Under the pieces are notes generated by a model that saw only the letters and a program-made list of their open reading frames with translations, searched no databases and was not told where the DNA came from. 23,048 bases of DNA from a virus (taxonomy: Duplodnaviria > Heunggongvirae > Uroviricota > Caudoviricetes), in IMG/VR virus record IMGVR_UViG_2651869692_000002. One strand, given 5' to 3'. Every line of letters begins with the position of its first letter. Position 1 is the first letter of the stretch. Below are positions 2,966 through 23,048 of the stretch, piece by piece. Position numbers and translations under genes: made by a program.

Positions 2966-3540
2966 ACCGGGCCTCCGGTTGTATCGCCGCCTTTCAGGAC
3001 GCCAGTATGCTGATGCGCATCAACCACGATCCCGTTAGAACTCATCGCTCCGCCGCCCTGAGTAACGCCACCATTGATCACCACTTCGCTGTTAATACGC
3101 GTGCACTCAGCCTCCAGCACAAACTCACTGGTTTTCAGGGTGATGTTATCGGCAGCCTCAATGACCATGGATTTGATGCCCCTGACATACCAGCGCCCGG
3201 TGGCAGGTTCGTATTCAAACCAGCCACCGTCAGGATGTTCTGTCACGCAGGCGTCCGCCGACGTCGACGGTGGTGTGAACTGATTCGAATAGATGGCGGG
3301 CAGCGCAAAAGCTGTTTCCAGATTACCGCCCATACTCAGCAGCACCACCTGCTCACCTTCCGATGGTCGCCACCATGTCCGGGCATTCCCGGCACGCAGC
3401 GTCAGCCAGCTGATCCAGTTGGTTTCAAGGTCGCCCGTTTTCACCCGGCAAAGCCAGTTTGTCCTGTCCACTTCGGTGACTACCCCAGTGCGGATCAGGT
3501 TGGTGATAAGGCGCATGATTTCGGTTAATTGTGCGTTCAT
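2962..3540 (-). CDS. V: Baseplate central spike / assembly protein (P2 gpV-like)
   Basis: 192-aa ORF; position between S and W; similarity pattern to gpV (TNW..W...RAG..RTWW.PS.GEQV). Confidence 0.8.
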   Translation of the reverse strand: MNAQLTEIMRLITNLIRTGVVTEVDRTNWLCRVKTGDLETNWISWLTLRAGNARTWWRPSEGEQVVLLSMGGNLETAFALPAIYSNQFTPPSTSADACVTEHPDGGWFEYEPATGRWYVRGIKSMVIEAADNITLKTSEFVLEAECTRINSEVVINGGVTQGGGAMSSNGIVVDAHQHTGVLKGGDTTGGPV

Positions 3541-3586
3541 AGGGAAAGGTTGCCATCAGGGGAAGAAAGGCGGCAGTGCTGCAACT

Positions 3587-3604
3587 TGTATCAGTGCTGA
3601 TACA
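3587..3604. promoter_or_regulatory. Candidate late-promoter activator site (Ogr/B-type dyad TGT-N12-ACA) upstream of V
   Basis: Near-perfect palindrome TTGTATCAGTGCTGATACAA in the S-V intergenic gap, where P2 carries the PV late promoter. Confidence 0.45.
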
Positions 3605-3608
3605 AAAA

Positions 3609-4055
3609 TCACCCCGCCAGCCATTGCAGAATCATGTCGCGGGTCATTGCCTCAACATCATCATTTACACCCAGAAGGCGACGCTCTGCGTAACGGACCT
3701 CCGGTCCTTTGCGGCTGACGCGATCACGTAAGCCGTAGTGATGAACACGGGCAATGCGCTGTACCTTGCCTTCAAACTGCACGCTGGCAGAGTCGGCGCT
3801 GGCGGAAGTTTTCAGGTATTTTGTGGTGCGCAGCTTTGCAAACATCTGACGTTTGATACGGCCTTTTTTACTGCGTGCTGTTACCCGTCGCGGTTCATAA
3901 CTGCTGCCATCTGGATTGCGCTGCATTCTGATATTTTGCTGCTGTGTCCGGCGTAGTTCCTGCGCCAGCTGGCGCATCATGCGGCTTCTTGCGGCTGGCT
4001 CCAGATTCGCCAGCAAGGCACTCAGCCAGTCGTCCACTTTCTGCAGTTCAGCCAC
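3609..4055 (-). CDS. S: Tail completion protein (P2 gpS-like)
   Basis: 148-aa ORF starting at a GTG that overlaps the R stop; size and position match gpS. Confidence 0.7.
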   Translation of the reverse strand: MAELQKVDDWLSALLANLEPAARSRMMRQLAQELRRTQQQNIRMQRNPDGSSYEPRRVTARSKKGRIKRQMFAKLRTTKYLKTSASADSASVQFEGKVQRIARVHHYGLRDRVSRKGPEVRYAERRLLGVNDDVEAMTRDMILQWLAG

Positions 4056-4479
4056 GTTTCACCGTCCACATTTCTTCAGGTTCATCAGGTTCCGCTATAG
4101 CTTCAACGCTCGACACACTGCCGTCAGTGCTGACCAGCACACGCTCCGTCAGTTGCAGGTTGAGGCTGATATCACAGACATCGTTGCGCAGAATATCCAC
4201 CTCAAAGGTGAATAGCTTTTCCCGTAACGCCGGGTTATTGATGGCATCGGGCTGGTTATCACGCAGCCACAGCAAAACCGGGGCCATCAGCAGATTCTGG
4301 TCGCCGCTGAAATCCTCAATCACCACGTTCAGGGTGTAGCGGTACTCCCATGACATGGAGCTGGCCCCCGTGGCAACCAGCGAACCGTTATCCACAAACA
4401 GATGCAGTTTGTCCGGGTTATTTCGGACATAAGGCACCGCTTTATTGAGGGCGTGGCGCAGGGATTGTGGTTTGTTCAC
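4048..4479 (-). CDS. R: Tail completion protein (P2 gpR-like)
   Basis: Track start at 4500 is a TTG; the GTG at 4479 preceded by AGGAG gives an N-terminus (V/M)NKPQSLRHAL that aligns with gpR; FVDNGS motif conserved. Confidence 0.7.
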   Translation of the reverse strand: MNKPQSLRHALNKAVPYVRNNPDKLHLFVDNGSLVATGASSMSWEYRYTLNVVIEDFSGDQNLLMAPVLLWLRDNQPDAINNPALREKLFTFEVDILRNDVCDISLNLQLTERVLVSTDGSVSSVEAIAEPDEPEEMWTVKRG

Positions 4480-4732
4480 TGTTTCGCTCCTGACACGCAA
4501 TAATCATGTCCACTTTGTCTGCACAGATCGCCCAGGCGGCCTCCGTTTCATCCAGCAACGCATTCAGATCACCGTTAGTGCGCGGTGCTGCCTGCTCCAG
4601 CCGACACGGCGTCACTCTCGAACAACCACTGACGGTAAGCTGCACCTCCGGTGAGTACCGGACGTTCCCGCAGCCGGATAATGTCAGCAGGCAAAGGAGT
4701 ATCAGCCCAGTGGCGTAAATCCTCGTTCTCAC
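4442..4732 (-). CDS. lysC: Outer-membrane spanin lipoprotein (LysC/Rz1-like), overlapping the 3' end of lysB and the 5' end of R
   Basis: GTG start with GAGGAA RBS; N-terminal lipoprotein signal with lipobox LTLSGC; out-of-frame overlap with the i-spanin gene as in P2 lysB/lysC. Confidence 0.6.
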   Translation of the reverse strand: MRTRIYATGLILLCLLTLSGCGNVRYSPEVQLTVSGCSRVTPCRLEQAAPRTNGDLNALLDETEAAWAICADKVDMIIACQERNSEQTTIPAPRPQ

Positions 4733-5003
4733 GTTTCAGTTCCTCGATCCGGCGTTGTCGTTGTCTCAGCTGTGCGCTGGTCTGTTCTGCTTCGGCATAG
4801 AGCCGCGCCTGCTCCCGGTTATTGGTTTCATTCAGAATGGACAGGCTGATAAGCTGGCTGTTGCTCTTTGCCAGTGCCTGGCTTTTGCTCTGCAGCTCGT
4901 TTGCCTGCGTGCTGATGGTCTGGCTGGCATCAGCCAGCCGCCACGTCTGCCAGCCCAGCGCCGCCAGTAATAACGCCAGCACAACCAGCAGCAACCGGTT
5001 CAT
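4575..5003 (-). CDS. lysB: Inner-membrane spanin (LysB/Rz-like)
   Basis: 142-aa ORF with N-terminal transmembrane segment followed by a charged, coiled-coil-like region; ATGA overlap with the lysA stop. Confidence 0.7.
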   Translation of the reverse strand: MNRLLLVVLALLLAALGWQTWRLADASQTISTQANELQSKSQALAKSNSQLISLSILNETNNREQARLYAEAEQTSAQLRQRQRRIEELKRENEDLRHWADTPLPADIIRLRERPVLTGGAAYRQWLFESDAVSAGAGSTAH

Positions 5004-5377
5004 GCTGCTACCTGTTGCGCCATCTGATTACGGGTGATCCAGAAGGCAATAACGGTCAGTAGATAAAAGACCAGGGTAATAGCCCACCCCGTCCATGCGA
5101 GACTTACAACAATCAGCAATCGCATCACCCAACTGATAAATACGTTTTCTTTTCGGGTAATTGTCTTCAGCAAAGATGCCCTTAACTCCTGCCAGAGCGG
5201 GCCATTCTGAATTAACGCAGCCAGTGCTACCGGAATTACCGCCCATGTCAGCAAACAGGCTACCCAAACGCCGGACGCTGCCAGTACCGGAAAGATCCCC
5301 TGCGGATACACCATTGCTGCGATTAACAGCGCCATCCATAACATCAGAAACAGTCCGCTGATTAATTTCTTTTTCAT
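5000..5377 (-). CDS. lysA: LysA-like lysis-timing membrane protein
   Basis: Multi-pass hydrophobic protein; track ORF starts at GTG 5449; the ATG at 5377 (MKKKLISG...) sits immediately after the endolysin stop. Confidence 0.6.
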   Translation of the reverse strand: MKKKLISGLFLMLWMALLIAAMVYPQGIFPVLAASGVWVACLLTWAVIPVALAALIQNGPLWQELRASLLKTITRKENVFISWVMRLLIVVSLAWTGWAITLVFYLLTVIAFWITRNQMAQQVAA

Positions 5378-5378
5378 T

Positions 5379-5891
5379 TCAGTTTGCTCCCTGTAAACAC
5401 CAGGCCATCTCCCGCGCACGGCGGTTATCCAGCCCCTGATTAAACACACCTTTTACATAAACCCAGCGCGGCAACTGTCGGCACGCATCCGCCCAGCGCC
5501 GCTGATTGAGCAATTTCACCAGCGTGGAACTACAGGCATTGCCCGTCCCCACGTTGAAGGCAAACGACACCGTAGCGTCATACACCTTCTGTGGTGGCTG
5601 TTGCTTCACACACCTTTCCAGTGCCCGCTCCACACGCAGCACGTTGGAGATCAGCCCTTCTGCTGCCTGTCGTTCCGTGATTGTTTTGCCGGGAATGACG
5701 CCCGATGTATTACCAATGCCGTCGGTCCAGACACCCGCGCTGCACTGATACGGCTGCAGACGACAGCCTTCGTAATCGGCAATCAGTTTCAGTCCCTCCA
5801 CGGAGGTGTGAAGCTGCTGAAAACCCGGCAGCGTGGCAGCAATAGCCAGCACGACCCCGACAAGGCAGCGTTTAACGACTGATGGATTCAT
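5379..5891 (-). CDS. K: Endolysin (P2 gpK-like lysozyme) with N-terminal hydrophobic signal-anchor-release-type segment
   Basis: 170-aa ORF; GGGAGG RBS; N-terminal RCLVGVVLAIAATLPG hydrophobic stretch followed by a lysozyme-like domain (EG..L.AY....G.WT.G.G motif region). Confidence 0.8.
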   Translation of the reverse strand: MNPSVVKRCLVGVVLAIAATLPGFQQLHTSVEGLKLIADYEGCRLQPYQCSAGVWTDGIGNTSGVIPGKTITERQAAEGLISNVLRVERALERCVKQQPPQKVYDATVSFAFNVGTGNACSSTLVKLLNQRRWADACRQLPRWVYVKGVFNQGLDNRRAREMAWCLQGAN

Positions 5892-6087
5892 AGTCCTCCC
5901 GCGAGATCTGCCCGTCGCGCAGAAGCTGGTAGGCTTTGTGTTTGTAGTACCAGTTGATAGCCAGCATCAGCACACCAATCATCAGGCCGCCCAGCGTTGA
6001 GGCATCCTTGATGGACAAATCGCCCAGCCAAGCCAGCACGACGGCGATGCAATACGTGATAAAGGCGCTGATTCGCTCAAGCGTCAT
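5872..6087 (-). CDS. Holin (small two-TMD membrane protein at the P2 gene Y position)
   Basis: 71-aa ORF with two hydrophobic segments and a charged C-terminus, immediately upstream of and overlapping the endolysin gene. Confidence 0.6.
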   Translation of the reverse strand: MTLERISAFITYCIAVVLAWLGDLSIKDASTLGGLMIGVLMLAINWYYKHKAYQLLRDGQISREDYESISR

Positions 6088-6090
6088 AAT

Positions 6091-6294
6091 TCAGTCCCAT
6101 AGCTGAACGGTCTGCACGGTGGTGGTTGTCGGAATGTCCGGCAGCTCCACCTGCAGCCCGTGAGGTAAAAAGGGGCCGTATTCGGCAAGCCCCGGATTTG
6201 CCTTCAGTACCTGCTCCGTGACACCCTGCGTGCGCCCGTAATGACGCCAGCAAAGCGCGTCCACCGTGTCATACTGATGCGCACGCACTTTCAT
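6091..6294 (-). CDS. X: Tail protein X (P2 gpX-like)
   Basis: 67-aa ORF with D.LC.RYYGRT.GV.E.VL.ANPGLAE.G..LP.G..V.LPD motif matching gpX. Confidence 0.8.
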   Translation of the reverse strand: MKVRAHQYDTVDALCWRHYGRTQGVTEQVLKANPGLAEYGPFLPHGLQVELPDIPTTTTVQTVQLWD

Positions 6295-6758
6295 CAGATA
6301 AGCTCCACTGTGCAGTGCGGCGCATCCTGTACCCGGCTGATGGCCCAGCGGGCGTCACGCCACAAATCACCGCTTGCTTCCGCCTGTTCCTCGCCCCGCT
6401 TCACACCGGACGCCGTGGCGTCATAGTCCTGATAACGCTCATTGAGCATGGCGCGTGCCCAGCAGTAAACCGCGTTGAAATAGTGATGAATGCGCTCACT
6501 TTTGCCGTCCAGCTGTTCCGCCGGAACCTCAGCCAGCGACGCATACCCCAGCATCTGCTGACGTCTGCGAAACTCATACAGCTCTGCGTTGACCTCCGAA
6601 ATTGCCGACAGCGCAACCTGCTTTAAACGCGGCTGCGTCACCGTGCCGTCAGTGCGCATGACACTGCGAAACTCCGACAAGTCCACATCAGGCCAGAACG
6701 GCGTATTTCTGATGATTTCCGCCTGTTCCGGTGCCTGTTCTGGCGCAACAAACTTCAT
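6294..6758 (-). CDS. L: Head completion/stabilisation protein (P2 gpL-like)
   Basis: ATG at 6758 with AGGAG RBS (track ORF extends to a GTG at 6821); NAELYE..R motif and ELWRD.RWA..R.Q C-terminal motif as in gpL. Confidence 0.75.
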   Translation of the reverse strand: MKFVAPEQAPEQAEIIRNTPFWPDVDLSEFRSVMRTDGTVTQPRLKQVALSAISEVNAELYEFRRRQQMLGYASLAEVPAEQLDGKSERIHHYFNAVYCWARAMLNERYQDYDATASGVKRGEEQAEASGDLWRDARWAISRVQDAPHCTVELI

Positions 6759-6853
6759 GCTGCTTTCTCCTGAAATAAAGGGCGGTGGACGGGGTTTTGA
6801 TGTGGCTGTGCCTTTCGCCACCCCGTGCCGCCCGTGCGCGGGGGCACGTTCTG

Positions 6854-7504
6854 TCAGCGGCTGTCATTGCGCAGTCTGCGCTCCAGCTGCTGTTTGTCTT
6901 TTTTCACGCCACAGCGGGGATCGAGCTGTAACGCATGGTTGAGATGATTAAGGGCGGAAGCCGGATTGCTTTCACTCAGGACAGCGCCAATCGCTTTATG
7001 CAGACGCGCCCGTGACTGGTCCGGCATATCCAGACCGTCTGTCAGCTCCAGCGTCTGCAGCAACAGATCGGCATCAAAGCCGGTGGCGGCAAGCATTGCG
7101 CTCTGCGCTGCATCTGCCATTTCCTCTGCCAGCACGGTCTGCACGTTGCGGTTACCCAGCGGCATCACCCAGCCATGACGCAGGGCATGACGCCCAATCT
7201 CCAGCGCCCCGGCATAATCTCCGGCATCAATGCGCCACAGCATCACGTACATCAGCACGTCATCCTGTTGAGCGCCTCCGGCAGCCAGGACGCCCTCCGC
7301 CCAGGCGGCATATTTCGGCAGCAGCTCCACCTTGATTTCCGCTTTTTTCACCGTGGACTGAACGCCCTTGAGACGGCGGCGGTCTTCCGCCAGTTGCAGC
7401 AGCATCAGGTCATAGCCCGACGCGTGGCGAACACTGCCGCCCTCACGGGCGGCCTGTTCAGCCTGAACGCGCAGGCGATGCTGCCGTGCGGGACTCAGGC
7501 TCAT
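6854..7504 (-). CDS. M: Terminase small/endonuclease subunit (P2 gpM-like)
   Basis: 216-aa ORF; N-terminal ..RH..RV.A motif and central AQDD.LM.VMLWR.D.GD.AGALEI motif matching gpM. Confidence 0.8.
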   Translation of the reverse strand: MSLSPARQHRLRVQAEQAAREGGSVRHASGYDLMLLQLAEDRRRLKGVQSTVKKAEIKVELLPKYAAWAEGVLAAGGAQQDDVLMYVMLWRIDAGDYAGALEIGRHALRHGWVMPLGNRNVQTVLAEEMADAAQSAMLAATGFDADLLLQTLELTDGLDMPDQSRARLHKAIGAVLSESNPASALNHLNHALQLDPRCGVKKDKQQLERRLRNDSR

Positions 7505-7507
7505 GGT

Positions 7508-8563
7508 TTATGCTCCGGCTTCTACGGCGACGCTGAAGTCGCCAATCTGGATGTTTTCCACCAGTGCTGCGCAGCGGTAGTCCTCAACCACATAGGCTTC
7601 GTTAACGGATTCAAAGTTTTCAATCCGGTCACGTTTCGGGTTGTCGATAACTGAACGGCGGCGGGTGTCTTCCTGCCAGTAGATGGACAGGTTATCCAGA
7701 CGGGTGATCAGCAGCGCATTCGGCGGGAAGAACGGCGCACGCACGGCCTGCAGGCCACCCATGCGTTTCTGGCTGATGATCATATCGGCAGCCAGTTTTT
7801 CACTGTTTTCCTGCTCTTTGTTGACCAGCGGGAAATACTTATCAGACAACAGTTCACGACCGCAAATCACCACCAGATCGTCATCGTCCTGGTAGACCAC
7901 GTCGATAAGCTCATTGACCGCATCCATCACCACGGCGTCCAGGTTGGCATATTCGCCACCTTTACCGACTTTCACCGCGCCCGGTGTGGTTTCACCGCCC
8001 GTGGTGGTGCTGCCCATGACGTGATCCGGTGCATCCTCACGGATTTTCTGTAGCCAGCCTTTATTCACATCCTGCAGCAGCGGGTTTTCGCTGCGGTTGG
8101 AGGTTTTCGCACGCTTCACGCCGTTAAAGCCGATCATGATGCGGTCCAGTGCCTGACGTTTCACGATGGCGTCACGGATACGCACCTGGAAATCCTGAAA
8201 CTTCGCCCACAGGTCCAGCTTCGCGTAGGTCAGCACCGTGTCAAAGTTGGTCTGCTCGCATTTATATTCCACATCGACCATCAGCGTCGGATCGACAGGC
8301 TCACGCTCTTTTGCGGTGGTATCAGTGGTTCCTGCAATGGTGCTGCCAACACCCAGCCCCAGCAACTGACCAGACTGCTCAGTCACTGGCGTGACGTTAA
8401 TCAGCGTCAGGAATGCGGCGGACTGCTGGATCTGGTCTTCCAGCGTCTGCTGCACAGACGGCTCTACAGTAAACTTGCTGGACAGTTCTTCAACTGCCAC
8501 ACCGTTCAGACGCGCCAGCTGCTGCAGGTAAGCGTTAAAAGCAAAGCGGGTATTCTTCTTCAT
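7508..8563 (-). CDS. N: Major capsid protein (P2 gpN-like)
   Basis: 351-aa ORF with extended similarity to gpN (TRF.FNAYL, KFTVEPSV.QTL, GFNGVKRA.TS.RS.NP.LQDV, GKGG.YA.LDA.VMDA). Confidence 0.9.
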   Translation of the reverse strand: MKKNTRFAFNAYLQQLARLNGVAVEELSSKFTVEPSVQQTLEDQIQQSAAFLTLINVTPVTEQSGQLLGLGVGSTIAGTTDTTAKEREPVDPTLMVDVEYKCEQTNFDTVLTYAKLDLWAKFQDFQVRIRDAIVKRQALDRIMIGFNGVKRAKTSNRSENPLLQDVNKGWLQKIREDAPDHVMGSTTTGGETTPGAVKVGKGGEYANLDAVVMDAVNELIDVVYQDDDDLVVICGRELLSDKYFPLVNKEQENSEKLAADMIISQKRMGGLQAVRAPFFPPNALLITRLDNLSIYWQEDTRRRSVIDNPKRDRIENFESVNEAYVVEDYRCAALVENIQIGDFSVAVEAGA

Positions 8564-8579
8564 CAGGTTTTGTGCTCCA

Positions 8580-9413
8580 TCAGCAATTGGTCAGAGTGTC
8601 AGCGGGGGCGTTACCGCCTGTTGCACGCTGGCGGTAGTCCTGGCGGCTGTCTTCATGGCTCAGCTTGTCCACCAGTTCGTTAAAGGCGGTCTGCTGTGCC
8701 TGCAGAGCAATCTCCAGCTCAGACAGGCGTTCTTCCTGCTCAGACAGGGATTTTTCGGTGCGTGCGCTCAGGTTCTGCTGCTCAGTGGCGACCAGCTCCA
8801 CGGCCTTATGCACATCAGAGAATCGGGCGTCATCGGACTGCTCTTTTTTGGTGAACAGCGCCGTGACACGGGCAAACAGGGACGGTTTGTCATCCTGGAT
8901 TTCTTCCAGTTCGATCACCGTTTCCTCTGCAGCGGTAAAGAGATTGGCAGGATTCTGCTTGCGGTTTGCCAGCGGGTTATGGGCCGCACTGGCGCTGAAT
9001 GTCAGCATTTCAGTGCCCAGACTGGCAGGGTCATCAGTGGCAGCCAGGCCGACCAGGTAGGCTTTGCCCGTATCAGCAAACTTCGGGCTGACTTCCATAG
9101 AGGTGAATAATTTCTGGCCTTTTTTCACCAGCTCCACCAGGGATTCCGTTGGCTCAACGTCGGCATACAGCGCCATCTTGCCCGCCAGCGGACCTTCCGT
9201 GATTTCTTCAGCAAACAGCGCCGTCACCTTGCCGTAGCGGTTAAAGGTGCTGTCCGGCAGATAAGACTTGATGTGCTCAAGGTTAATCAGAGCGGTATAC
9301 ACCGCCGGGTTGTAGCTGGCTGCCATCTGTTCCAGCCATTCACGCTGGATTTCGCGTCCGTCGGTGGTGGCACCTTCCACCCCGATGCGAAAACGCTTTG
9401 CTTTCACTGTCAT
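8580..9413 (-). CDS. O: Capsid scaffolding protein (P2 gpO-like)
   Basis: 277-aa ORF; FRIGVEG...DGR, YLVGLA.TDDPASLGTE and C-terminal ATGG......TNC motifs as in gpO. Confidence 0.85.
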   Translation of the reverse strand: MTVKAKRFRIGVEGATTDGREIQREWLEQMAASYNPAVYTALINLEHIKSYLPDSTFNRYGKVTALFAEEITEGPLAGKMALYADVEPTESLVELVKKGQKLFTSMEVSPKFADTGKAYLVGLAATDDPASLGTEMLTFSASAAHNPLANRKQNPANLFTAAEETVIELEEIQDDKPSLFARVTALFTKKEQSDDARFSDVHKAVELVATEQQNLSARTEKSLSEQEERLSELEIALQAQQTAFNELVDKLSHEDSRQDYRQRATGGNAPADTLTNC

Positions 9414-9491
9414 GAGCCGTGCTCCGTTAGAAAAAACTTACTGGAGCCTTATGGTTGCGGTGATGGGGGCAGTGAAACAATGCGCGGTATT

Positions 9492-9509
9492 TGTACCGAC
9501 AACCACACA
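9492..9509. promoter_or_regulatory. Candidate late-activator dyad (TGT-N12-ACA) in the divergent O/P promoter region
   Basis: TTTGTACCGACAACCACACAAA in the 142-bp gap between the O and P start codons; which of the two divergent promoters it serves cannot be decided from sequence. Confidence 0.4.
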
Positions 9510-9555
9510 AACCGCAGGCGGGGAAAGCCTTCATTCAAGGCTGTAGGTTTGTGCC

Positions 9556-11322
9556 ATGAACACCACACTGACACCCGCAGATCTCGATCCCCGTCGGCAG
9601 GCCATGCTGCTGTACTTTCAGGGATACCGTGTAGCCCGCATTGCTGAAATGCTGGGCGAGAAAGTTGCAACCGTTCACAGCTGGAAAAAACGCGACAAGT
9701 GGGGTGACTATGGGCCGCTGGATCAGATGCAGCTCACCACCGCCGCACGCTACTGCCAGCTCATTATGAAGGAGCACAAAGAAGGGAAAGATTTCAAAGA
9801 GATTGACCTGCTGGCGCGCCAGTCGGAGCGCCATGCGCGGATCGGCAAGTTTAACAATGGCGGCAACGAAGCCGACTTAAACCCTAACGTCGCCAACCGC
9901 AACAAAGGCCCGCGCCGTCAGCCGGAAAAGAACGTTTTCACCGATGAACAGATTGAGAAGCTGGAAGAAATCTTCCATTCCTCCATGTTCAACTACCAGC
10001 GCCACTGGTGGGAAGCCGGAAAAACCAACCGCATCCGCAACCTGCTGAAGTCACGCCAGATCGGCGCGACCTTCTATTTTGCCCGTGAAGCCCTGATTGA
10101 CGCCCTGCTAACCAGGCGTAACCAGATTTTCCTTTCCGCCAGCAAGGCTCAGGCCCACGTCTTCAAGCAGTACATCATCGACTTCGCCAAAGAAGTGGAG
10201 GTGGAGCTGAAAGGCGATCCGATGGTGCTTCCTAACGGGGCCACGCTGTACTTCCTCGGCACCAATGCCCGCACGGCCCAGAGTTACCACGGCAACCTGT
10301 ATCTGGATGAATATTTCTGGATACCGAAATTCCAGGAGCTGCGCAAAGTGGCTTCCGGTATGGCTATTCACAAAAAATGGCGACAAACCTATTTTTCCAC
10401 GCCATCCAGCCTGACACACAGTGCTTATCCGTTCTGGTCCGGTGCGCTGTTCAACCGAGGGCGCAACAAAGCCGATAAGGTGGACATCGACCTGTCCCAC
10501 AGCAATCTGGCCCCCGGCCTGCTGTGCGCAGACGGGCAGTACCGCCAGATAGTCACTGTGGAAGATGCGGTGCGCGGCGGCTGTAACCTGTTCGACCTCG
10601 ACCAGTTGCGCATGGAGTACAGCCCGGACGAATACCAGAACCTGCTGATGTGTGAGTTCGTGGACGATCTCGCGTCCGTGTTCCCGCTCAGCGAGCTGCA
10701 GGCGTGCATGGTGGACAGCTGGGAAGTCTGGACCGACTTTCATGCACTGGCGCTGCGCCCGTTTGGCTGGCGCGAAGTGTGGATCGGTTATGACCCGGCA
10801 AAAGGTACGCAAAACGGCGACAGCGCCGGATGCGTGGTGGTGGCTCCGCCAGCCGTGCCGGGCGGCAAGTTCCGCATTCTTGAGCGTCACCAGTGGCGCG
10901 GAATGGACTTTCGCGCCCAGGCTGACGCCATCAAAAAACTGACCGAACAGTATAACGTGACCTATATCGGCATCGACTCGACCGGCGTCGGTCACGGGGT
11001 TTACGAGAACGTGAAAGCGTTTTTTCCTGCCGTCCGGGAGTTTGTCTACAACCCCAACGTTAAAAACGCCCTGGTACTCAAGGCCTACGACATTATCAGC
11101 CACCGCCGCCTGGAGTTTGACGCCGGGCACACCGACATTGCGCAGTCATTTATGGCAATCCGTCGCGCTACCACTGCCAGTGGCAACCGCCCGACCTATG
11201 AAGCCAGCCGCAGCGAAGAAGCCAGCCATGCCGATCTGGCCTGGGCAACAATGCACGCACTGTTTAACGAACCGCTGCAGGGCGAGTCCGCCAATACCAG
11301 CAATATTGTGGAGATTTTTTGA
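9556..11322 (+). CDS. P: Terminase large/ATPase subunit (P2 gpP-like)
   Basis: 588-aa ORF, ATG at 9556, full-length resemblance to P2-family terminase large subunits; stop overlaps the Q start (TGATG). Confidence 0.9.
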   Translation: MNTTLTPADLDPRRQAMLLYFQGYRVARIAEMLGEKVATVHSWKKRDKWGDYGPLDQMQLTTAARYCQLIMKEHKEGKDFKEIDLLARQSERHARIGKFNNGGNEADLNPNVANRNKGPRRQPEKNVFTDEQIEKLEEIFHSSMFNYQRHWWEAGKTNRIRNLLKSRQIGATFYFAREALIDALLTRRNQIFLSASKAQAHVFKQYIIDFAKEVEVELKGDPMVLPNGATLYFLGTNARTAQSYHGNLYLDEYFWIPKFQELRKVASGMAIHKKWRQTYFSTPSSLTHSAYPFWSGALFNRGRNKADKVDIDLSHSNLAPGLLCADGQYRQIVTVEDAVRGGCNLFDLDQLRMEYSPDEYQNLLMCEFVDDLASVFPLSELQACMVDSWEVWTDFHALALRPFGWREVWIGYDPAKGTQNGDSAGCVVVAPPAVPGGKFRILERHQWRGMDFRAQADAIKKLTEQYNVTYIGIDSTGVGHGVYENVKAFFPAVREFVYNPNVKNALVLKAYDIISHRRLEFDAGHTDIAQSFMAIRRATTASGNRPTYEASRSEEASHADLAWATMHALFNEPLQGESANTSNIVEIF

Positions 11323-12356
11323 TGGGAAAGAGTAAGAAGAACCGCGCTGCGTCGACGAAACAGATCCAGCATAAAAGCCAGACTTCAGCCGAAGCATTCA
11401 GCTTCGGTGATCCCGTTCCTGTTCTGGACCGCCGCGAACTGCTGGACTATGTGGAATGCGTACAGATGGATCGCTGGTATGAGCCACCAGTGAGTTTCGA
11501 CGGACTGGCGCGAACCTTCCGCGCCGCCATACATCATAGCTCACCGATTGCAGTGAAGTGCAACATTCTGACCAGCACCTACATCCCTCACCCGCTGCTC
11601 AGCCAGCAGGCTTTTTCGCGTTTTGTACAGGACTTTCTGGTTTTTGGTAACGCCTACCTGGAGAAACGCACGAACCGCTTCGGTGAAGTTATAGCCCTTG
11701 AGCCTGCTCTGGCAAAATACACCCGACGCGGGTTAGACCTGGATACCTACTGGTTTGTGCAATACGGTATGACAACCCAGCCGTATCAGTTCACGAAAGG
11801 CAGCATTTTTCATCTGATGGAGCCGGACATCAACCAGGAGATCTACGGCCTGCCCGGTTATCTTTCTGCCATTCCGTCAGCCCTGCTCAACGAGTCCGCC
11901 ACGCTGTTCCGCCGGAAGTATTACATTAACGGCAGCCATGCGGGCTTCATCATGTACATGACCGACGCCGCGCAGAACCAGGAGGATGTGAACAACCTCC
12001 GCAACGCAATGAAAAGTGCCAAAGGTCCTGGTAACTTCCGTAACCTGTTTATGTACTCGCCTAACGGCAAAAAGGACGGGCTTCAGATTATCCCGTTGTC
12101 AGAAGTGGCGGCGAAGGATGAGTTCCTGAATATCAAGAACGTGAGCCGGGACGACATGATGGCGGCGCATCGTGTGCCGCCGCAAATGATGGGTATCATT
12201 CCCAACAATACCGGCGGTTTTGGGGATGTGGAAAAGGCCAGTCGCGTCTTCACAAGAAACGAAATAGTACCGTTACAAAAGCGATTGCTGGAGCTAAATG
12301 AATGGCTTGGTGAAGAGGTAGTCCGATTCAATCCATATGAGCTTAATACTGACTAG
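11322..12356 (+). CDS. Q: Portal (capsid portal vertex) protein (P2 gpQ-like)
   Basis: Track ORF starts at a TTG at 11319; the ATG at 11322 gives 344 aa, the length I recall for gpQ; the last ~80 nt are visibly AT-richer than the rest. Confidence 0.9.
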   Translation: MGKSKKNRAASTKQIQHKSQTSAEAFSFGDPVPVLDRRELLDYVECVQMDRWYEPPVSFDGLARTFRAAIHHSSPIAVKCNILTSTYIPHPLLSQQAFSRFVQDFLVFGNAYLEKRTNRFGEVIALEPALAKYTRRGLDLDTYWFVQYGMTTQPYQFTKGSIFHLMEPDINQEIYGLPGYLSAIPSALLNESATLFRRKYYINGSHAGFIMYMTDAAQNQEDVNNLRNAMKSAKGPGNFRNLFMYSPNGKKDGLQIIPLSEVAAKDEFLNIKNVSRDDMMAAHRVPPQMMGIIPNNTGGFGDVEKASRVFTRNEIVPLQKRLLELNEWLGEEVVRFNPYELNTD

Positions 12357-12363
12357 CAAGCAT

Positions 12364-12388
12364 AAAAAAGCCCGGTATTACCGGGCTT
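12364..12388 (-). terminator. Rho-independent terminator (hairpin plus T-tract on the minus strand), possibly bidirectional
   Basis: AAAAA-AGCCCGG-TATTA-CCGGGCT: GC stem followed by a T-run when read on the minus strand; sits between the Q stop and the 3' end of the minus-strand small ORF. Confidence 0.55.
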
Positions 12389-12411
12389 CATGCAAAACGC
12401 ATTTCATGGAA

Positions 12412-12591
12412 TTAAGCAGCTTTCTGCTTTTCTTTGAGCTTACCATGCAGCTCATTTCCTTCAAATTTGCAGTCCTGCATCATATGTGGGGCCGCTTGAA
12501 GTAGTTCTTCCATCGCGACGCCCATACGGCTGAAAACATCAGATACTGAGTAATGCTTCTGAGCTTTCTTGTCACTATGCGTCATAGTCAT
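12412..12591 (-). CDS. Small hypothetical protein (59 aa), second gene of a two-gene minus-strand module
   Basis: Not in the ORF track (under 60 aa); ATG at 12591 preceded by AGAGGA at good spacing; reads MTMTHSDKKAQKHYSVSDVFSRMGVAMEELLQAAPHMMQDCKFEGNELHGKLKEKQKAA; followed by the terminator at 12364-12388. Confidence 0.4.
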   Translation of the reverse strand: MTMTHSDKKAQKHYSVSDVFSRMGVAMEELLQAAPHMMQDCKFEGNELHGKLKEKQKAA

Positions 12592-12670
12592 GATTTCCTC
12601 TTAGAGGTCAAGCCTCATCATCCGGTGGTGGATGTTTGGCGCAGCATTGTAGCACTGCGCAAAAATTTAT

Positions 12671-13270
12671 CTACTGTTTCTTAGAAGTAATGTAGCGTCT
12701 TACTACATCAGTTATTGTAGCAAAAGGTGCCGAAAGCAAGCTTATATCACCTTTAAAACCAAATTTTTTATAGTGGTCAGCAACTTTTTGATTCAGGGCT
12801 TCAGGGATCCGAATCTCTTGACACCCAACCGCGCTACCAAAAAGATATACCGCCCACAATGTAACCATGAACATGTTGCCGTAAAGAGGGTGCTCTACGT
12901 CATCATCTTTCACAAAAGATTCCACAAAATGGATCTCTATGACTCCAGCGTCCTCGTCAAAGGTGCACATAGCTGCGCCAGAAGGGATATGCCTAAGTGG
13001 CCCCGCAAGGAGCTTCAAACAAAATTCAAACTTATCACTTCGATTGCCAAACCGAGAAAAACCATAATCCCATTCTAGCTGAGCGTATCCTGTGGTCAGG
13101 ATCACATAGTCTTCATCACTGATTGGACCAACAGCCAACGGCATCTTCAAAGTATCGAGGAGAAACTGAAGGTTACTTATACTTTGACTGGCAATCTGCT
13201 CTAAGTTCAATTCTCTGTCCTTCATGCTTACGACATTAAAGGCGACTACTTTAATGTCATTTTCGGACAA
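12671..13270 (-). CDS. Hypothetical protein (199 aa), AT-rich accessory gene between the portal gene and the putative cos
   Basis: 600-nt ORF in an AT-rich region; start uncertain (TTG at 13270 or ATG at 13225, neither with a strong RBS); no family recognised. Confidence 0.5.
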   Translation of the reverse strand: MSENDIKVVAFNVVSMKDRELNLEQIASQSISNLQFLLDTLKMPLAVGPISDEDYVILTTGYAQLEWDYGFSRFGNRSDKFEFCLKLLAGPLRHIPSGAAMCTFDEDAGVIEIHFVESFVKDDDVEHPLYGNMFMVTLWAVYLFGSAVGCQEIRIPEALNQKVADHYKKFGFKGDISLLSAPFATITDVVRRYITSKKQ

Positions 13271-13496
13271 AGACTATAAATCTTTAATGAAACAATAGCA
13301 GAACCTTTTAAAGGTTTGCTACCTATCACTGCAACTTGTGACAGAACACTAAATCTACAGCCAACTCCGGAACACATTCAACATTTATTTAAATCCCTTC
13401 AAACAAGATTGCACAAAAACGCGCCCTCCCTTTCAGAAGAAAACCATCAGCGGGCCTGAGGCTAAGTGAATTTTACTATTTCAACCCGCGGCGCGC

Positions 13497-13515
13497 GCTC
13501 GTATCCCCGCCACGC
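13497..13515 (-). other. Putative cos site (cohesive-end region) of the P2/186 family
   Basis: Minus strand reads GGCGTGGCGGGGATACGAG; the first 13 nt match my recollection of the P2/186 cohesive-end consensus (GGCG(A/T)GGCGGGGAAAGCA.), in the orientation expected for the Q-proximal genome end; GC-rich island inside AT-rich DNA. Confidence 0.4.
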
Positions 13516-13560
13516 CTGCCCGCTTTGTGTAGTGGTTTTCATGCACCTGCATGACATAAG

Positions 13561-13584
13561 CAAAAGCCCGCCAGCTCTGGCGGG
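13561..13584 (-). terminator. Rho-independent terminator downstream of the HNH gene
   Basis: 9-bp GC stem GCCCGCCAG / CTGGCGGGC followed on the minus strand by TTTTGCTT. Confidence 0.55.
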
Positions 13585-13698
13585 CATCAGCAAAAACGAT
13601 CCTCAAACGATCATGCGATTTCATGCGGCATAGACATGCGTTGGCAAAAATGCACGAAATACTCAGCTTATAGGAAATGGTCTTTTTCCAACCTCCAG

Positions 13699-14418
13699 TT
13701 AGCCAAAGCAGAAACCAATATTGCAATTTGAAACTCCACAGTTGTGAAATTGATGTGGACCTACTCTTAGCTTGTGTTCGTCTCCTACAATCCGAGTCCC
13801 CTTAACCAACATATCTAATCTTTCCACAATCAATCTTTCAGGCGCATCAACTTTAATAATTAAACGAGGACCTTTCCTTTTTTCTATAATAGTTATTCTA
13901 GGACCGACAACCTGAACATCCCAATGCCTTGCACTACAAACCCACTCATTCTTAATTAATTCAAGATTAACAATACCTTGACTATCGTAAAATTTACCCG
14001 AAATAAGAAAAGCATTATTTTCTTTTTCAATGGTTAACAATGGCTCATTTTGAAACATTATTGGTACAGTACAGGATTCAAACGTCGCACCACCAAATAT
14101 TATTGTTGGATGCCTATCAGAAAAGTCCAATATATCGGCCACATTCCCTTTTTGTAAGGCTGCAGGAGATTCCATTGCTTTAATTATTTTCTCTTTAGAG
14201 TAAAGACGTTTCGTTACTTTCGCATGGCACGTAGGACAAAGTAGTGCTATTGCATTTGGAGAGTGCTCCTTTGCATCAGCGTATGTGGGAATTACATGCT
14301 CATACTCAACAATGGGAGAAGCACAAACAACGCAACCGAAGCCACAGCGCTGCCTTACCTCCAGTTTTACAGGTTCAGGAATTGTTCTAGATAACCCATG
14401 CTTGTTAATAGTTGTCAT
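13699..14418 (-). CDS. HNH-family endonuclease domain protein with uncharacterised ~160-aa C-terminal domain
   Basis: 239-aa ORF, ATG at 14418; N-terminal CGFGCVVC...EYEHVIP...NAIALLCPTCH matches the HNH fold (paired Cys plus H-N-H residues); AT-rich composition; own terminator. Confidence 0.7.
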   Translation of the reverse strand: MTTINKHGLSRTIPEPVKLEVRQRCGFGCVVCASPIVEYEHVIPTYADAKEHSPNAIALLCPTCHAKVTKRLYSKEKIIKAMESPAALQKGNVADILDFSDRHPTIIFGGATFESCTVPIMFQNEPLLTIEKENNAFLISGKFYDSQGIVNLELIKNEWVCSARHWDVQVVGPRITIIEKRKGPRLIIKVDAPERLIVERLDMLVKGTRIVGDEHKLRVGPHQFHNCGVSNCNIGFCFG

Positions 14419-14540
14419 AACCTTACCTTAAAACTTCGAGAAACCTTTTATATATTGATACTATATCAACTAACGCCTCGCACAGCTCGTTGTTCAACCT
14501 TGCTGACGCCAGAAGCAAGTTCAGACGCCAGCAACGTTTC

Positions 14541-14774
14541 TTAATGCAGCCAGCTGTCGTCTTCCCACACCTTCTGCATAATTTTCATCACTTGTTTTCT
14601 TTCTTCGTCCAGTTGAAGTCCGGTCAGTTCCACACCGTTAGAGCTACCTTTGCGGATACGAATTACCGTTTTGGGATACAGGGGGCGCAGATTGCGGTAA
14701 AGCTCGGATTCAAGGGCGTCCAGGGTAGACTGGCTAATCTTCTGCTCTTTATCGATCATTATTTCAATGCGCAT
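14541..14774 (-). CDS. dinI: DinI-family protein
   Basis: ATG at 14774 with GAGGTGA RBS; MRIEIMIDK...L.ELYRNLRPLYPKTVIRIRKGSSNGVELTGL...KQVMKIMQKVWEDDSWL resembles DinI (MRIEVTI..., C-terminal ...WE..D.W); the track ORF's longer N-terminus is a frame artefact. Confidence 0.75.
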   Translation of the reverse strand: MRIEIMIDKEQKISQSTLDALESELYRNLRPLYPKTVIRIRKGSSNGVELTGLQLDEERKQVMKIMQKVWEDDSWLH

Positions 14775-14784
14775 AAAAGTCACC

Positions 14785-14973
14785 TCAACTGATGACATCC
14801 ATTGAGCGGTTGTATTCGTGGGTTCTGATTTTTGCCATGAGTTCATCTGTCAGTTCAGAAACCCACTGCAGGGCCAGCCCCTTCTCTTCATCACTACACT
14901 CACTAGCCGCTACAAGCTTAAGAAAAAAATCAATGCGCTGGAGCTTCAAAGACTCCAAAAAATAGTCCTGCAT
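14785..14973 (-). CDS. Small SOS-controlled protein (62 aa), first gene downstream of a LexA box; possible Tum-like antirepressor component
   Basis: ATG at 14973 with AGGAGG RBS, 41 nt downstream of a consensus LexA box; stop overlaps the RBS of the DinI-like gene; functional assignment is by position only. Confidence 0.5.
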   Translation of the reverse strand: MQDYFLESLKLQRIDFFLKLVAASECSDEEKGLALQWVSELTDELMAKIRTHEYNRSMDVIS

Positions 14974-15014
14974 CTTTCCTCCTATGACACCACAAGAAAT
15001 ACTGTAAATATAAC

Positions 15015-15034
15015 CACTGTTTATATTTACAGTA
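15015..15034 (-). promoter_or_regulatory. LexA operator (SOS box) at the promoter of the small-ORF / dinI module
   Basis: Minus strand TACTGTAAATATAAACAGTG fits CTGT-N8-ACAG with AT-rich spacer; an adjacent half-site (CTGT at 15002-15005) is also present. Confidence 0.7.
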
Positions 15035-15125
15035 TATAATAATCTTACTGATGTAAAACGTTTTTTACGTTCATCAGCCTGATATGCCTGGTATTATTAA
15101 GAGCACGAATTGTTAACCCGCGTGA

Positions 15126-20195: not shown

Positions 20196-20320
20196 GATGC
20201 AACATTCCTCGTTTAATGATGATTAATCAGGACGAATACGGATCGTTTGTATTTTGTGAACACCATAAACATACGATCGCACGATGAAATCGTCAAGATA
20301 AAAGTTCACTTGGAGTGACC
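20196..20320. promoter_or_regulatory. Lysis-lysogeny switch region (face-to-face/divergent promoters and operators between apl and cI)
   Basis: 125-bp AT-rich intergenic region between divergent apl and cI; contains short inverted repeats (TTAAT-GATG-ATTAA; GTGAAC ... GTTCAC) that could be operators. Confidence 0.5.
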
Positions 20321-20890
20321 ATGAATTTGGAGAAAGGCGGACGAGGCGCTATAGAGCGCATGGTAGAAGCTTATGGATTCAAAACTCGACAGGCGTTGTG
20401 CGATCATTTAGGAATCTCTAAAAGTACACTCGCTACACGCTACATGCGTGACTCATTCCCAGCAGAATGGGTAATCCAGTGCGCCCTTGAAACGGGCACC
20501 TCGCTTAATTGGCTCACAACTGGACATGGTTCAAAGCAAACTTCAGGTAATACAAATACGATGGAAGTTGCGAAATATGTATTATCTGATGGTGCCTTGC
20601 GTGAAGACGGTTTTTATATTTTTGATAAGGGATTTCTACCCTCTACGTTTAAAAAACCTTTTGTCATCACAGATAACAATTCTGAATTTATTTGTGATAA
20701 AGAATTTGATGATATACGTGATGGTAAATGGGTAATAAGTATTGATGGCGAAATAACAATCCGCGACATTACTCGTTTACCCGGTGGAAGAATCTTCGTT
20801 GAAGGTGGAAACAGAGCCTTCGAGTGCAAGATAGAAGATGTTGAAATAATTGGAAAAATTATAAGTTTAACAATTAAGTACGTTAGGTAA
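20321..20890 (+). CDS. cI: CI immunity repressor (phage 186 type)
   Basis: ATG at 20321 with GGAG RBS (track ORF starts at an upstream GTG); EAYGF...CALETG..L.WLTTG and ITIRDITRLPG...FECKI.D motifs resemble 186 CI. Confidence 0.8.
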   Translation: MNLEKGGRGAIERMVEAYGFKTRQALCDHLGISKSTLATRYMRDSFPAEWVIQCALETGTSLNWLTTGHGSKQTSGNTNTMEVAKYVLSDGALREDGFYIFDKGFLPSTFKKPFVITDNNSEFICDKEFDDIRDGKWVISIDGEITIRDITRLPGGRIFVEGGNRAFECKIEDVEIIGKIISLTIKYVR

Positions 20891-20905: not shown

Positions 20906-21097
20906 ATGCTTGGTAAGGTATTTTTTGTGGTTTTATCATGCTCTTTGTTATTAAACCCACTAACTACCTATGCTAAAAATTATCCTTGTTCTGGGAAAAA
21001 GGGAGGTGTCTCTCACTGTACCTCCGATGGAAAGTTCGTTTGCAATGATGGAACTATTAGTAAATCAAAAAAAATCTGTACTAAAAACTCGCGATAA
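20906..21097 (+). CDS. Small secreted cysteine-rich protein (63 aa), moron between cI and int
   Basis: Strong GGGAGG RBS; N-terminal signal peptide (hydrophobic core, probable cleavage after TYA); mature part has 4 Cys; AT-rich. Confidence 0.5.
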
Positions 21098-21283: not shown

Positions 21284-22315
21284 ATGGCAGTACGAAAACT
21301 CACCACAGGAAAATGGCTTTGCGAATGTTACCCCGCCGGACGTAGTGGGCGTCGTGTGCGTAAACAATTCGCCACCAAAGGCGAAGCACTGGCTTTTGAG
21401 CGTCACACGATGGAAGAAACCGAAGCAAAGCCCTGGCTGGGCGAATCAGTAGATCGTCGAACCCTGAAAGACGTGGTTGAGCTATGGTTCAAACTACATG
21501 GTAAATCTCTGACTGCTGGGCAGCATGTCTATGACAAATTGCTGCTGATGGTTGACGCTCTGGGCAATCCCCTTGCAACCGATCTCACATCTAAAATGTT
21601 TGCCCATTATCGAGATAAACGACTGACAGGTGAGATCTACTTCAGCGAGAAATGGAAGAAAGGGGCCAGCCCGGTCACCATTAACCTGGAGCAAAGCTAT
21701 CTAAGTAGTGTTTTTAGCGAACTATCCCGCCTGGGCGAATGGTCGTATCCAAACCCACTGGAGAACATGCGAAAATTCACCATCGCAGAAAAAGAGATGG
21801 CATGGCTTACCCATGAGCAGATTGTTGAACTGCTGGATGATTGCAAACGTCAGGACCCAATTCTGGCACTGGTAGTCAAGATATGCTTAAGCACAGGCGC
21901 ACGCTGGCGAGAAGCAATAAACCTTACCCGATCACAGGTGACCAAATACCGAATTACCTTTGTAAGAACGAAGGGGAAGAAAAACAGAAGCATCCCTATC
22001 AGTAAAGAGCTTTATGAAGAGATCATGGCGCTTGATGGGTTCAATTTCTTCACAGACTGCTATTTTCAATTTTTATCCGTGATGGAAAAAACGTCTATCG
22101 TGCTCCCTCGCGGTCAACTTACACACGTTCTGCGTCATACGTTTGCGGCGCATTTCATGATGTCGGGTGGAAACATCCTTGCTTTGCAAAAAATCCTCGG
22201 ACATCACGACATAAAAATGACTATGCGTTATGCTCATCTATCACCTGATCACTTAGAGACAGCTCTTCGTTTCAATCCACTGGCAACTTTGGATGTTACT
22301 AAATCAGATTCTTAA
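21284..22315 (+). CDS. int: Tyrosine integrase (P2/186 family)
   Basis: ATG at 21284 with GGAGGG RBS (track ORF has a 26-codon upstream extension); catalytic region VLRHTFAAHFMMSGGNILALQKILGHHDIKMTMRYAHL contains the H-x-x-R and Y motifs. Confidence 0.9.
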   Translation: MAVRKLTTGKWLCECYPAGRSGRRVRKQFATKGEALAFERHTMEETEAKPWLGESVDRRTLKDVVELWFKLHGKSLTAGQHVYDKLLLMVDALGNPLATDLTSKMFAHYRDKRLTGEIYFSEKWKKGASPVTINLEQSYLSSVFSELSRLGEWSYPNPLENMRKFTIAEKEMAWLTHEQIVELLDDCKRQDPILALVVKICLSTGARWREAINLTRSQVTKYRITFVRTKGKKNRSIPISKELYEEIMALDGFNFFTDCYFQFLSVMEKTSIVLPRGQLTHVLRHTFAAHFMMSGGNILALQKILGHHDIKMTMRYAHLSPDHLETALRFNPLATLDVTKSDS

Positions 22316-22325
22316 AGGTTCAAGC

Positions 22326-23048
22326 ATGGTTAAGTTTTTGTTTCAATTCCCAATATTCGACTTCTCCTTAACATTTGATATTATCGAGACGTTAATCACT
22401 CATAGCGAATCATCAATCGCTAAGGGCATAGCAGAATATAAAGACAAAGGACCTGAAGAATATATAATTGAAATATCTCCGGAAGATGGTGTATATCAGT
22501 CAATTGATCATTACATGGGACTCACCAGCTCATCGCTAGATCTCGATGAAATGTTTTTAGAATACTACCCAAGTATTATCCGCAGGTCAGTATTCTTAAC
22601 TATATTCGGAATTTTTGAGCACGAAATAGAAAAATTCTGTAACAACTTTGCTAATAGACATCATTCTCCTATAAATGTTTCAGATCTCAAAGGAAGTGGA
22701 TTTGAGAGGAGCCATCTATTTATCAAAAAAATGATAGGGATGAAGTCAACATCCCACTATTCGAATATCAAAAAAATAACAAAATTAAGAAACAGTTGTG
22801 CGCATAATGATGCAAAATACTTAGAAAACGATGGGCAAAATATTAAAAGCATTATTGAACTTATAGAAAAATATCCTGATTTTTTTAAAAAAGATGGAAA
22901 ACAGGTCCTATTTATGGGGGGCTCGTTAAGCATGATCTTGAACTCATTCAAAGAGTATCTTTCTGATGTTGAAAGAGCCTTAGATGAATTCGAAAAACAA
23001 AGCACTAGTGGCGACAAAGTGGCGGCAGCGGTTGGCATTACCCCGTAA
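22326..23048 (+). CDS. HEPN-motif protein (candidate RNase/abortive-infection-type effector); may alternatively start at 22293
   Basis: Very AT-rich ORF directly after int; canonical HEPN R-x4-H motif (RNSCAH at 22788-22805); final ~45 nt are abruptly GC-rich. Confidence 0.5.
   Translation: MVKFLFQFPIFDFSLTFDIIETLITHSESSIAKGIAEYKDKGPEEYIIEISPEDGVYQSIDHYMGLTSSSLDLDEMFLEYYPSIIRRSVFLTIFGIFEHEIEKFCNNFANRHHSPINVSDLKGSGFERSHLFIKKMIGMKSTSHYSNIKKITKLRNSCAHNDAKYLENDGQNIKSIIELIEKYPDFFKKDGKQVLFMGGSLSMILNSFKEYLSDVERALDEFEKQSTSGDKVAAAVGITP

Follow-up and report, generated by a model that had tools for sequence, protein, structure and literature searches.

A solo HEPN-domain gene carried as cargo between int and attP of a P2/186-like prophage

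Background

HEPN domains that retain the Rx4-6H motif cleave RNA as dimers and without a metal ion (PMC3710099). HepS, from the Gifsy-1 prophage, is a solo HEPN protein of 218 amino acids that is constitutively made as an inactive tetramer and has no partner gene; it is opened by a siphovirus tail-tip protein, after which it cleaves tRNA anticodon loops and aborts the infection (PMC13043305). The Abi2/Swt1 assemblage, to which the families RiboL-PSP-HEPN (PF18735) and Abi_2/AbiD/AbiF (PF07751) belong, consists of predicted metal-independent RNases tied to abortive infection (PMC3710099). As to genomic location, the interval between int and att in P2 and that between primase and att in P4 have been described as minor defence hotspots (PMC13586616).

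The gene described here is the last ORF in a stretch of 23,048 nucleotides of viral DNA (hereafter, the window). It is, like hepS (PDB 9oik), a single prophage gene without a conserved partner, but the two differ in the type of phage (a P2/186-like myovirus and the lambdoid Gifsy-1, respectively), in the slot occupied (int-att and the replication-antirepressor region, respectively) and in the position of the motif in the protein (residues 155-160 and 100-105, respectively). There was also no detectable sequence relationship between HepS and the window protein when both of our family profiles were compared with PDB chains at E ≤ 10, and the best reading is that the window ORF would be analogous, not homologous, to HepS. 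The best Pfam matches of the protein and its relatives, which fall on the motif region, are to the Abi2/Swt1 assemblage; however, the window ORF has neither an L-PSP fusion nor a ParB neighbour, and its own family is set apart by conserved E28, P82, R86, E98 and C105 and by two beta-hairpin inserts. Relative to HepT/MntA (HEPN-MNT, a type VII toxin-antitoxin system), the window ORF lacks an MNT partner, is approximately 100 residues longer and gives no sequence-level match. In PADLOC, the model RTasHEPN (PDLC03820) is grouped with the defence-associated reverse transcriptases (DRT) and is matched by 55 of 95 family members; yet this model has 148 positions, covers only the C-terminal half of the protein, and there is no reverse transcriptase by the window ORF. 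The likeness to the known hotspots is in location, the window ORF lying in a P2-like int-att interval and homologues in the P4-like primase-att interval; published screens did not include the gene family, and current defence annotation models miss it.

Results and discussion

An AT-rich ORF with a conserved HEPN motif

The ORF (22326..23048, plus strand), identified from the ORF listing and full-length homologues as a solo HEPN-domain gene of 240 codons, is complete, running from an ATG at 22326 to a TAA at 23046-23048, the final three bases of the window. The initial annotation, made from the sequence of the window, had placed it immediately downstream of the integrase gene, and the distance to the int stop codon (22313-22315) is indeed a 10-nt spacer, with AAGG within it. 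The same annotation had described the ORF as far more AT-rich than the phage core, which agrees with a GC content of 0.346 over the full ORF, or 0.331 when only the cargo part is counted (minus the last 40 nt), relative to 0.564 for positions 1-12000 of the window (0.33-0.35 versus 0.56) and 0.466 for int. GC content of the gene was 0.32-0.40 in each host examined.

Within the ORF, KLRNSCAHND contains an Rx4H HEPN catalytic motif, R155-N-S-C-A-H160 (22788..22805, plus strand; codons of R155 and H160 at 22788-22790 and 22803-22805, respectively), identified by its conservation and by its place at the end of a predicted helix (residues 143-161). Shuffled versions of the 240-residue protein contained R[NHQD]xxxH in 2.7% of cases and Rx4-6H in 46%; because such motifs are not rare in shuffles, the case for a HEPN protein was built on conservation and fold, not on the motif. 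The canonical R-N-x-x-x-H noted in the initial annotation is therefore present as claimed, with its significance deriving from conservation across relatives.

A search of 5.8 billion proteins gave 40 homologues, mostly full length and with 41-96% identity, from Escherichia, Enterobacter, Citrobacter, Raoultella, Cronobacter, Serratia and Pantoea. Conservation was assessed in a close alignment (A1) of 24 homologues from across Enterobacterales with 39-79% identity to the window protein and in a distant alignment (A3) of 95 relatives with 18-43% identity. R155, N156, H160 and D162 were invariant in all 24 close homologues, as was a second block upstream of the motif, P82-S-x2-R86-R-S...E98. Across the 95 distant relatives R155 was the sole invariant column, while N156, H160, E28, P82, R86, E98, C105 and L201 were conserved in at least 90%. 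A profile search of 1.84 billion cluster representatives produced 2071 matches at E ≤ 1e-3 (534 at E ≤ 1e-10), nearly all of them 200-250 amino acids long and aligned end to end.

In public annotation these proteins appear as 'hypothetical protein', the label carried by an exact copy of the window protein on more than 500 contigs, or, in places, under a generic HEPN label, as for a near-identical E. coli protein and a Pantoea homologue named 'Cthe-2314-like HEPN domain-containing protein' in UniRef. A search of the searchable literature with two protein accessions found no papers, and no experimental study of any family member was found.

Profile matches and predicted fold support HEPN membership

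Matches of the window protein to curated models were all below threshold. RiboL-PSP-HEPN (PF18735) was matched with 17.4 bits (E 0.004; gathering cut-off 28.4) and Abi_2 (PF07751) with 14.7 bits (gathering threshold 25.6), and the sub-threshold PADLOC matches were to HEC-01A, Cas13a HEPN and RTasHEPN (the last with E 0.023, over residues 137-219). Every one of the weak curated matches was to a HEPN family and was centred on the motif. A scan of the window protein against NCBIfam gave zero matches, and none of the validated defence-system models matched it. Among the PHROGs, the protein matched phrog_21382 (unknown function; 2.9e-9) in addition to a weak match to an 'abortive infection resistance' family.

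Relatives gave stronger matches. RiboL-PSP-HEPN was matched by 14 of the 24 close homologues (best 2.7e-5), while others of the close homologues matched pEK499_p136, MAE_28990, Apea, AbiU2 and Cthe_2314 HEPN. For the 95 distant members, RiboL-PSP-HEPN was matched by six (best 4.2e-8), and the 55 matches to RTasHEPN were at E ≤ 1e-3 (best 7.5e-10). The relatives that reach these best HEPN E-values are linked to the window protein at E < 1e-18. The search of HEPN subfamily models that the initial annotation had proposed as a check was thus positive in part: relatives match more strongly, but the window protein's own matches all fall below the curated thresholds.

In HEPN domains the Rx4-6H motif has a polar residue (N, D or H) after the arginine and lies at the end of helix 3, while helix 2 carries an acidic residue and is separated from helix 3 by an insert (Anantharaman et al. 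2013; PMC3710099). An AlphaFold2 model built with the 24-sequence alignment (pLDDT 85.9, pTM 0.81) predicts long helices at residues 14-41, 73-111, 143-161 and 200-235, the second and third of which are separated by a short helix (126-137), as well as two beta-hairpins (44-63 and 187-196), while the C-terminal 11 residues are disordered (pLDDT below 50 over residues 230-240). In this model the R-N-x3-H motif is at the C-terminal end of helix 3 and the conserved acidic E98 is in helix 2; a family-conserved motif is thus found together with a predicted four-helix up-down bundle in which an insert separates helix 2 from helix 3 and helix 3 ends in the motif. Since the fold agrees with the published description, the whole protein is read as a single HEPN domain with two beta inserts. 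Residues 1-70 had been considered as a separate N-terminal sensor domain and were re-read as HEPN helix 1 and a beta-hairpin insert.

In the PDB sequence searches nothing relevant was found, both profiles at E ≤ 10 returning only two unrelated proteins, and a Foldseek search of viral structures returned only uncharacterised proteins. Taken over motif conservation, convergent sub-threshold profiles and predicted fold, membership of the window protein in the HEPN superfamily is well supported, as the initial annotation had proposed, and the protein is very probably a catalytic HEPN-fold protein. Its placement in any curated HEPN family is not supported; with 17.4 bits against a cut-off of 28.4, it is not classed in PF18735, which is simply the nearest curated family.

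The ORF is cargo of a P2/186-like prophage

The window belongs to a P2/186-like prophage, in which the genes for CII, replication, capsid and tail lie upstream of cI and int. The lysogenic cI-int unit is marked by a 186-type CI repressor (20315..20890, plus strand; Pfam Phage_CI_repr 2.8e-33, Phage_CI_C 2e-28), and int encodes a tyrosine integrase of 343 amino acids (21284..22315, plus strand; WP_024174454.1; Pfam Int_N 2.7e-32, Phage_integrase 4.1e-22). The sequence beyond the window end was taken from strains with matching DNA. Over 799 nt of the int-ORF region, E. coli DSM 103246 differs by 1 mismatch, and its prophage is arranged in the order fhuE 5' part, ogr, ..., cI, small ORF, int, HEPN ORF, fhuE 3' part. 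Strains CFSAN064035 and CRE10 carry the same integrase (WP_024174454.1) and a near-identical ORF, adjoining rcdA. In strains with an identical cassette, the stop codon is followed by approximately 80 nt of attP arm, then the crossover site, and then the fhuE 3' fragment or rcdA.

Because of the prophage bounds in these three strains, the ORF is phage cargo and not a host gene. The initial annotation had suggested that a partner gene, for example an MNT-type nucleotidyltransferase, would lie past the window end; that expectation failed, and an MNT or any other downstream partner was rejected, as the attP arm and host DNA directly follow the ORF. Its proposed check for an att site downstream, in turn, located the att core followed by host DNA, and its alternative of an unrelated host gene was ruled out by the position of the ORF inside a prophage cargo slot.

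Nor was a partner found at other loci. No conserved neighbour was present across approximately 20 homologous loci in phages, satellites, plasmids and islands, and in an all-against-all BLAST of neighbours from 8 genomes of eight species only int (two loci) and one host gene recurred. None of the neighbours with Pfam calls at homologous loci was a nucleotidyltransferase, and no reverse transcriptase was present beside the ORF or any homologue examined. Scans for promoters and terminators gave nothing over background, the former performing no better than with shuffled sequence and the latter finding none between int and the ORF.

The cassette is inserted in the last codons of int

The anatomy of the slot was resolved by alignment of four prophage variants (L003, L004, L005 and the HEPN type, represented by the window and L001). 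A 117-nt stretch, from TGGCGACAAAGTGGCGGCAGCG... to ...CATAAATGG, is identical in the four variants and ends at the junction with host DNA. Upstream of this arm, the slot is empty in L003, holds an 89-aa ORF in L004, a Panacea-domain gene and a gene for a 251-aa protein in L005, and the HEPN ORF in the window and L001. In related P2-like prophages, int and the attP arm are thus conserved while the content between them varies, and the view in the initial annotation that the interval between int and the prophage boundary is a cargo site is supported by the variable slot contents of the sister prophages.

In the window the cargo is an AT-rich cassette of 715 bp (22292..23006, plus strand; GC 0.33) that interrupts the 3' end of int. 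From the cassette come seven new tail codons and a stop for int, the 10-nt AAGG spacer, and the HEPN ORF, which lacks its own stop codon. In the cargo-less L003, int ends in ...ATLPSGDKVAAAVGITP and the Int protein in ...RFNPLATLPSGDKVAAAVGITP, read through the arm doublet to a TAA, while int of the window ends in ...ATLDVTKSDS (the Int end being also given as ...RFNPLATLDVTKSDS) and the HEPN ORF in ...EKQSTSGDKVAAAVGITP, each followed by the stop. The last 13 codons and stop of the ORF (23007..23048, plus strand; GC 0.60), encoding SGDKVAAAVGITP, correspond to what was once the C-terminus of Int: in L003 this sequence closes int in the same frame, and the segment is encoded by the conserved P arm of attP. 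The HEPN ORF carries this 13-residue tail and stop because insertion of the cargo severed those codons from int. Insertion of the cassette inside the last codons of int thus accounts for the GC-rich end of the ORF (0.60), and the inherited tail accounts both for the disordered C-terminus and for the confinement of the tail to the closest homologues. In a 229-aa homologue from a Serratia prophage, the gene has its own stop, 12 nt ahead of the same arm motif. In L003, int can be followed through the attP arm doublet to ...PSGDKVAAAVGITP and its stop at L003:1840-1888, the counterparts in the window being 22292-22315 and 23007-23048. An origin of the GC-rich ORF end from host fhuE sequence was considered and rejected, the segment being attP arm and old Int tail.

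Within this segment lies a doublet, TGGCGACAaagTGGCGGCA (23009..23027, plus strand), consisting of two direct 8-mers spaced 11 bp apart. The window has a single occurrence of the doublet, relative to 0.01 occurrences expected by chance; a second copy is at the other prophage end (L002:689-707), and the doublet is also found at or just past the HEPN gene in Serratia and Enterobacter prophages. Since a pair of direct 8-mers one helical turn apart, present on both attP arms, is what would be expected of arm-type sites, the doublet is probably an arm-type binding site for Int. In the attP arm past the window end (L001:8818-8854) there are, in addition, two direct 18-nt repeats, AAYCTAACTTATTGTTTT, 19 nt apart, which could be candidate sites for an accessory factor such as IHF or excisionase.

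In the int-att slot of L005 (L005:1272-2500), a gene for a 155-aa Panacea-domain protein is followed by one for the 251-aa protein, the latter without family match; the two are possibly a PanA-type toxin-antitoxin pair.

Homologues occupy att-proximal slots in phages and satellites

The cassette was present in 25 of 5426 complete E. coli genomes, with one copy in each and at least 99.3% identity over the whole of the 671-bp cassette probe used for the count, while the arm or the int 3' end was matched by approximately 1100 genomes. A tblastn search of 50,697 sequenced phage records gave no copy, and 113 plasmids carry relatives with less than 60% identity. Homologues lie directly after int in 186-like prophages of Enterobacter (P0012, P0020) and Serratia (P0028) and in metagenome contigs (P0026), and Salmonella and Rouxiella homologues detected by tblastn adjoin int fragments. 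In P4-like satellites (P0036, P0038) they lie directly after the primase gene. A homologue on a conjugative plasmid (P0022) is in the leading region near psiB and ssb, and homologues in islands adjoin a type I R-M-like operon, an LA2681-type HEPN gene, a resolvase gene or DUF3800. The cargo gene is thus solitary and sits in a swappable int-attP slot and in equivalent att-proximal slots of P4-like satellites.

In a Raoultella P4-like satellite (L009:4869-5876, L010:263-1270) the HEPN homologue is preceded by a gene for a DUF4238 protein with a weak match to the PADLOC model DUF4238-Pers; it is probably separate cargo, as the Pantoea satellite copy (L022) is without DUF4238.

Proposed function and alternative explanations

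The reading that we favour, with modest confidence, is that the ORF encodes a single-gene anti-phage HEPN RNase acting by abortive infection, carried as exchangeable cargo of a P2/186-like temperate phage. In phage 186, int is co-transcribed with cI from the lysogenic promoter. As the ORF is on the same strand as int, 10 nt from it and without a terminator-like site between the two, the cI-int unit expressed in the lysogen would include it as its final gene. The protein would be held inactive as an auto-inhibited oligomer, for which a component of a superinfecting phage may be the activating trigger, and the two beta-hairpin inserts may, speculatively, be surfaces for sensing or oligomerisation. 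In HEPN enzymes two Rx4H motifs must meet across the dimer. Once activated, the protein would cut tRNA or other RNA in a metal-independent manner through R155, N156 and H160, and this cleavage would halt translation before the invading phage matures.

An offensive role for the mobile element, which we regard as unlikely, would make the protein a counter-defence or competition factor that cuts host or rival-element RNA (defence-system RNA or tRNA) during establishment or induction, or a weapon between P2 helper and P4 satellite. The homologue beside psiB and ssb in a plasmid leading region is compatible with such a role, as is the occurrence of homologues in both P2-like helpers and P4-like satellites. 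Anti-defence genes are also common in the leading regions of conjugative plasmids. However, the ORF points the same way as the lysogenic cI-int unit, which suggests that lysogens express it, the other occupants of this slot and of neighbouring slots are defence-like (KAP NTPase, TIR-like protein, Panacea pair), and HEPN proteins of known role on mobile elements are mostly defence effectors (PMC3710099, PMC13043305).

Slightly less likely still, in our estimate, is a toxin that stabilises the prophage as part of a toxin-antitoxin or addiction module, whose unrecognised antitoxin would be a small RNA, the product of an overlapping ORF or a protein from another part of the phage genome. HepT-type HEPN toxins are the top structural matches of the protein, and the slot of a sister prophage holds a gene pair with an antitoxin-type Panacea domain, but the 715-bp cassette has no room for anything else, no MNT or other neighbour is common to the loci, and the gene moves alone among phages, satellites and plasmids. 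Candidate antitoxins in the locus fared no better: an antisense ORF of 93 codons (22757-23038) was dismissed, as homologues do not preserve it as an open frame, and an RNA antitoxin of the tandem-repeat kind was not supported, the sole tandem repeat being a weak 1.9-copy array of 11 nt inside the ORF.

That the protein is a non-catalytic HEPN, either a binding or regulatory protein or, given the overlap of its 3' end with the attP arm, an accessory factor for integration and excision, appears very unlikely. The gene does abut attP and has inherited the Int tail, and some HEPN domains only bind ligand, but such domains typically lose Rx4-6H (PMC3710099), which is here the most conserved feature. 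As for the accessory factor, the gene is absent from sister phages with an identical arm and with int DNA approximately 93% identical over the last ~380 nt, homologues in satellites, plasmids and islands are not beside any att site, and the shared tail is missing from 229-aa homologues. A decaying passenger without a selected function in the phage, as might be suspected from the rarity of the cassette in E. coli and from the loss of its own stop codon with read-through into int-derived sequence, is scarcely credible given 25 of 25 near-identical copies and a family of 2071 clusters of nearly uniform protein length with conserved catalytic residues.

The favoured reading, a single-gene abortive-infection RNase, is of a kind already known, namely a prophage-borne solo HEPN effector located in an acknowledged cargo hotspot; the family itself is without a curated model, a solved structure or a sequence relationship to HepS. 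If active, the protein would represent a compact one-gene defence candidate of 240 amino acids missed by PADLOC 2023, NCBIfam and Pfam. It would also be a second, unrelated case of a HEPN nuclease that keeps itself in check with no antitoxin, and would thereby help to extend the HepS model of an oligomer opened by a trigger beyond HepS. Tentatively, and with less confidence, we suggest that it may be the first representative of a large family of solo HEPN nucleases (at least 2,000 clusters at 50% identity) that have no antitoxin and have so far escaped curation. This family, distinct from HepS, would move as a minimal one-gene cassette among att-proximal slots of P2-like helpers, P4-like satellites and plasmids; a particular protein of a phage or satellite would activate it, possibly in helper-satellite conflict in addition to defence against foreign phages. 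The exact cassette boundaries also reveal the way in which P2/186-like phages exchange cargo at the int-attP junction, with the new gene placed within the last codons of int and ending in the former int tail and stop.

Integration sites and other variable regions of the prophage

The same phage, with an identical integrase (WP_024174454.1), was found integrated at two sites, beside rcdA and inside fhuE (L001:8860-8880, L002:600-640, L025/L026 around 3300-3400). At the rcdA site the host flank resembles the P' arm over approximately 25 nt, while at the fhuE site only about AATGG is shared. Integration splits fhuE, which is therefore inactivated, and fhuE looks like a secondary integration site.

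Two further intervals of the prophage hold AT-rich or variable genes. Between cI and int, the window has an AT-rich ORF of 63 codons (20906-21097, plus strand; GC 0.35), the product of which has a signal-peptide-like N-terminus, several cysteines and no family match; in related prophages (L011, L012, L016, L019) the cI-int interval holds genes for a KAP NTPase, a TIR-like protein of 289 amino acids or a 526-aa protein of unknown function. The region at 12000-15100 (minus strand; GC 0.43), between replication and portal genes, corresponds to the classic P2 old/tin hotspot and encodes a 239-aa HNH-domain protein (13702-14418), a 199-aa protein without family match (12674-13270) and a DinI-like protein (14544-14846). 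At the same old/tin site, E. coli DSM 103246 instead carries a DUF262 gene, IS2 and an LA2681-type HEPN gene.
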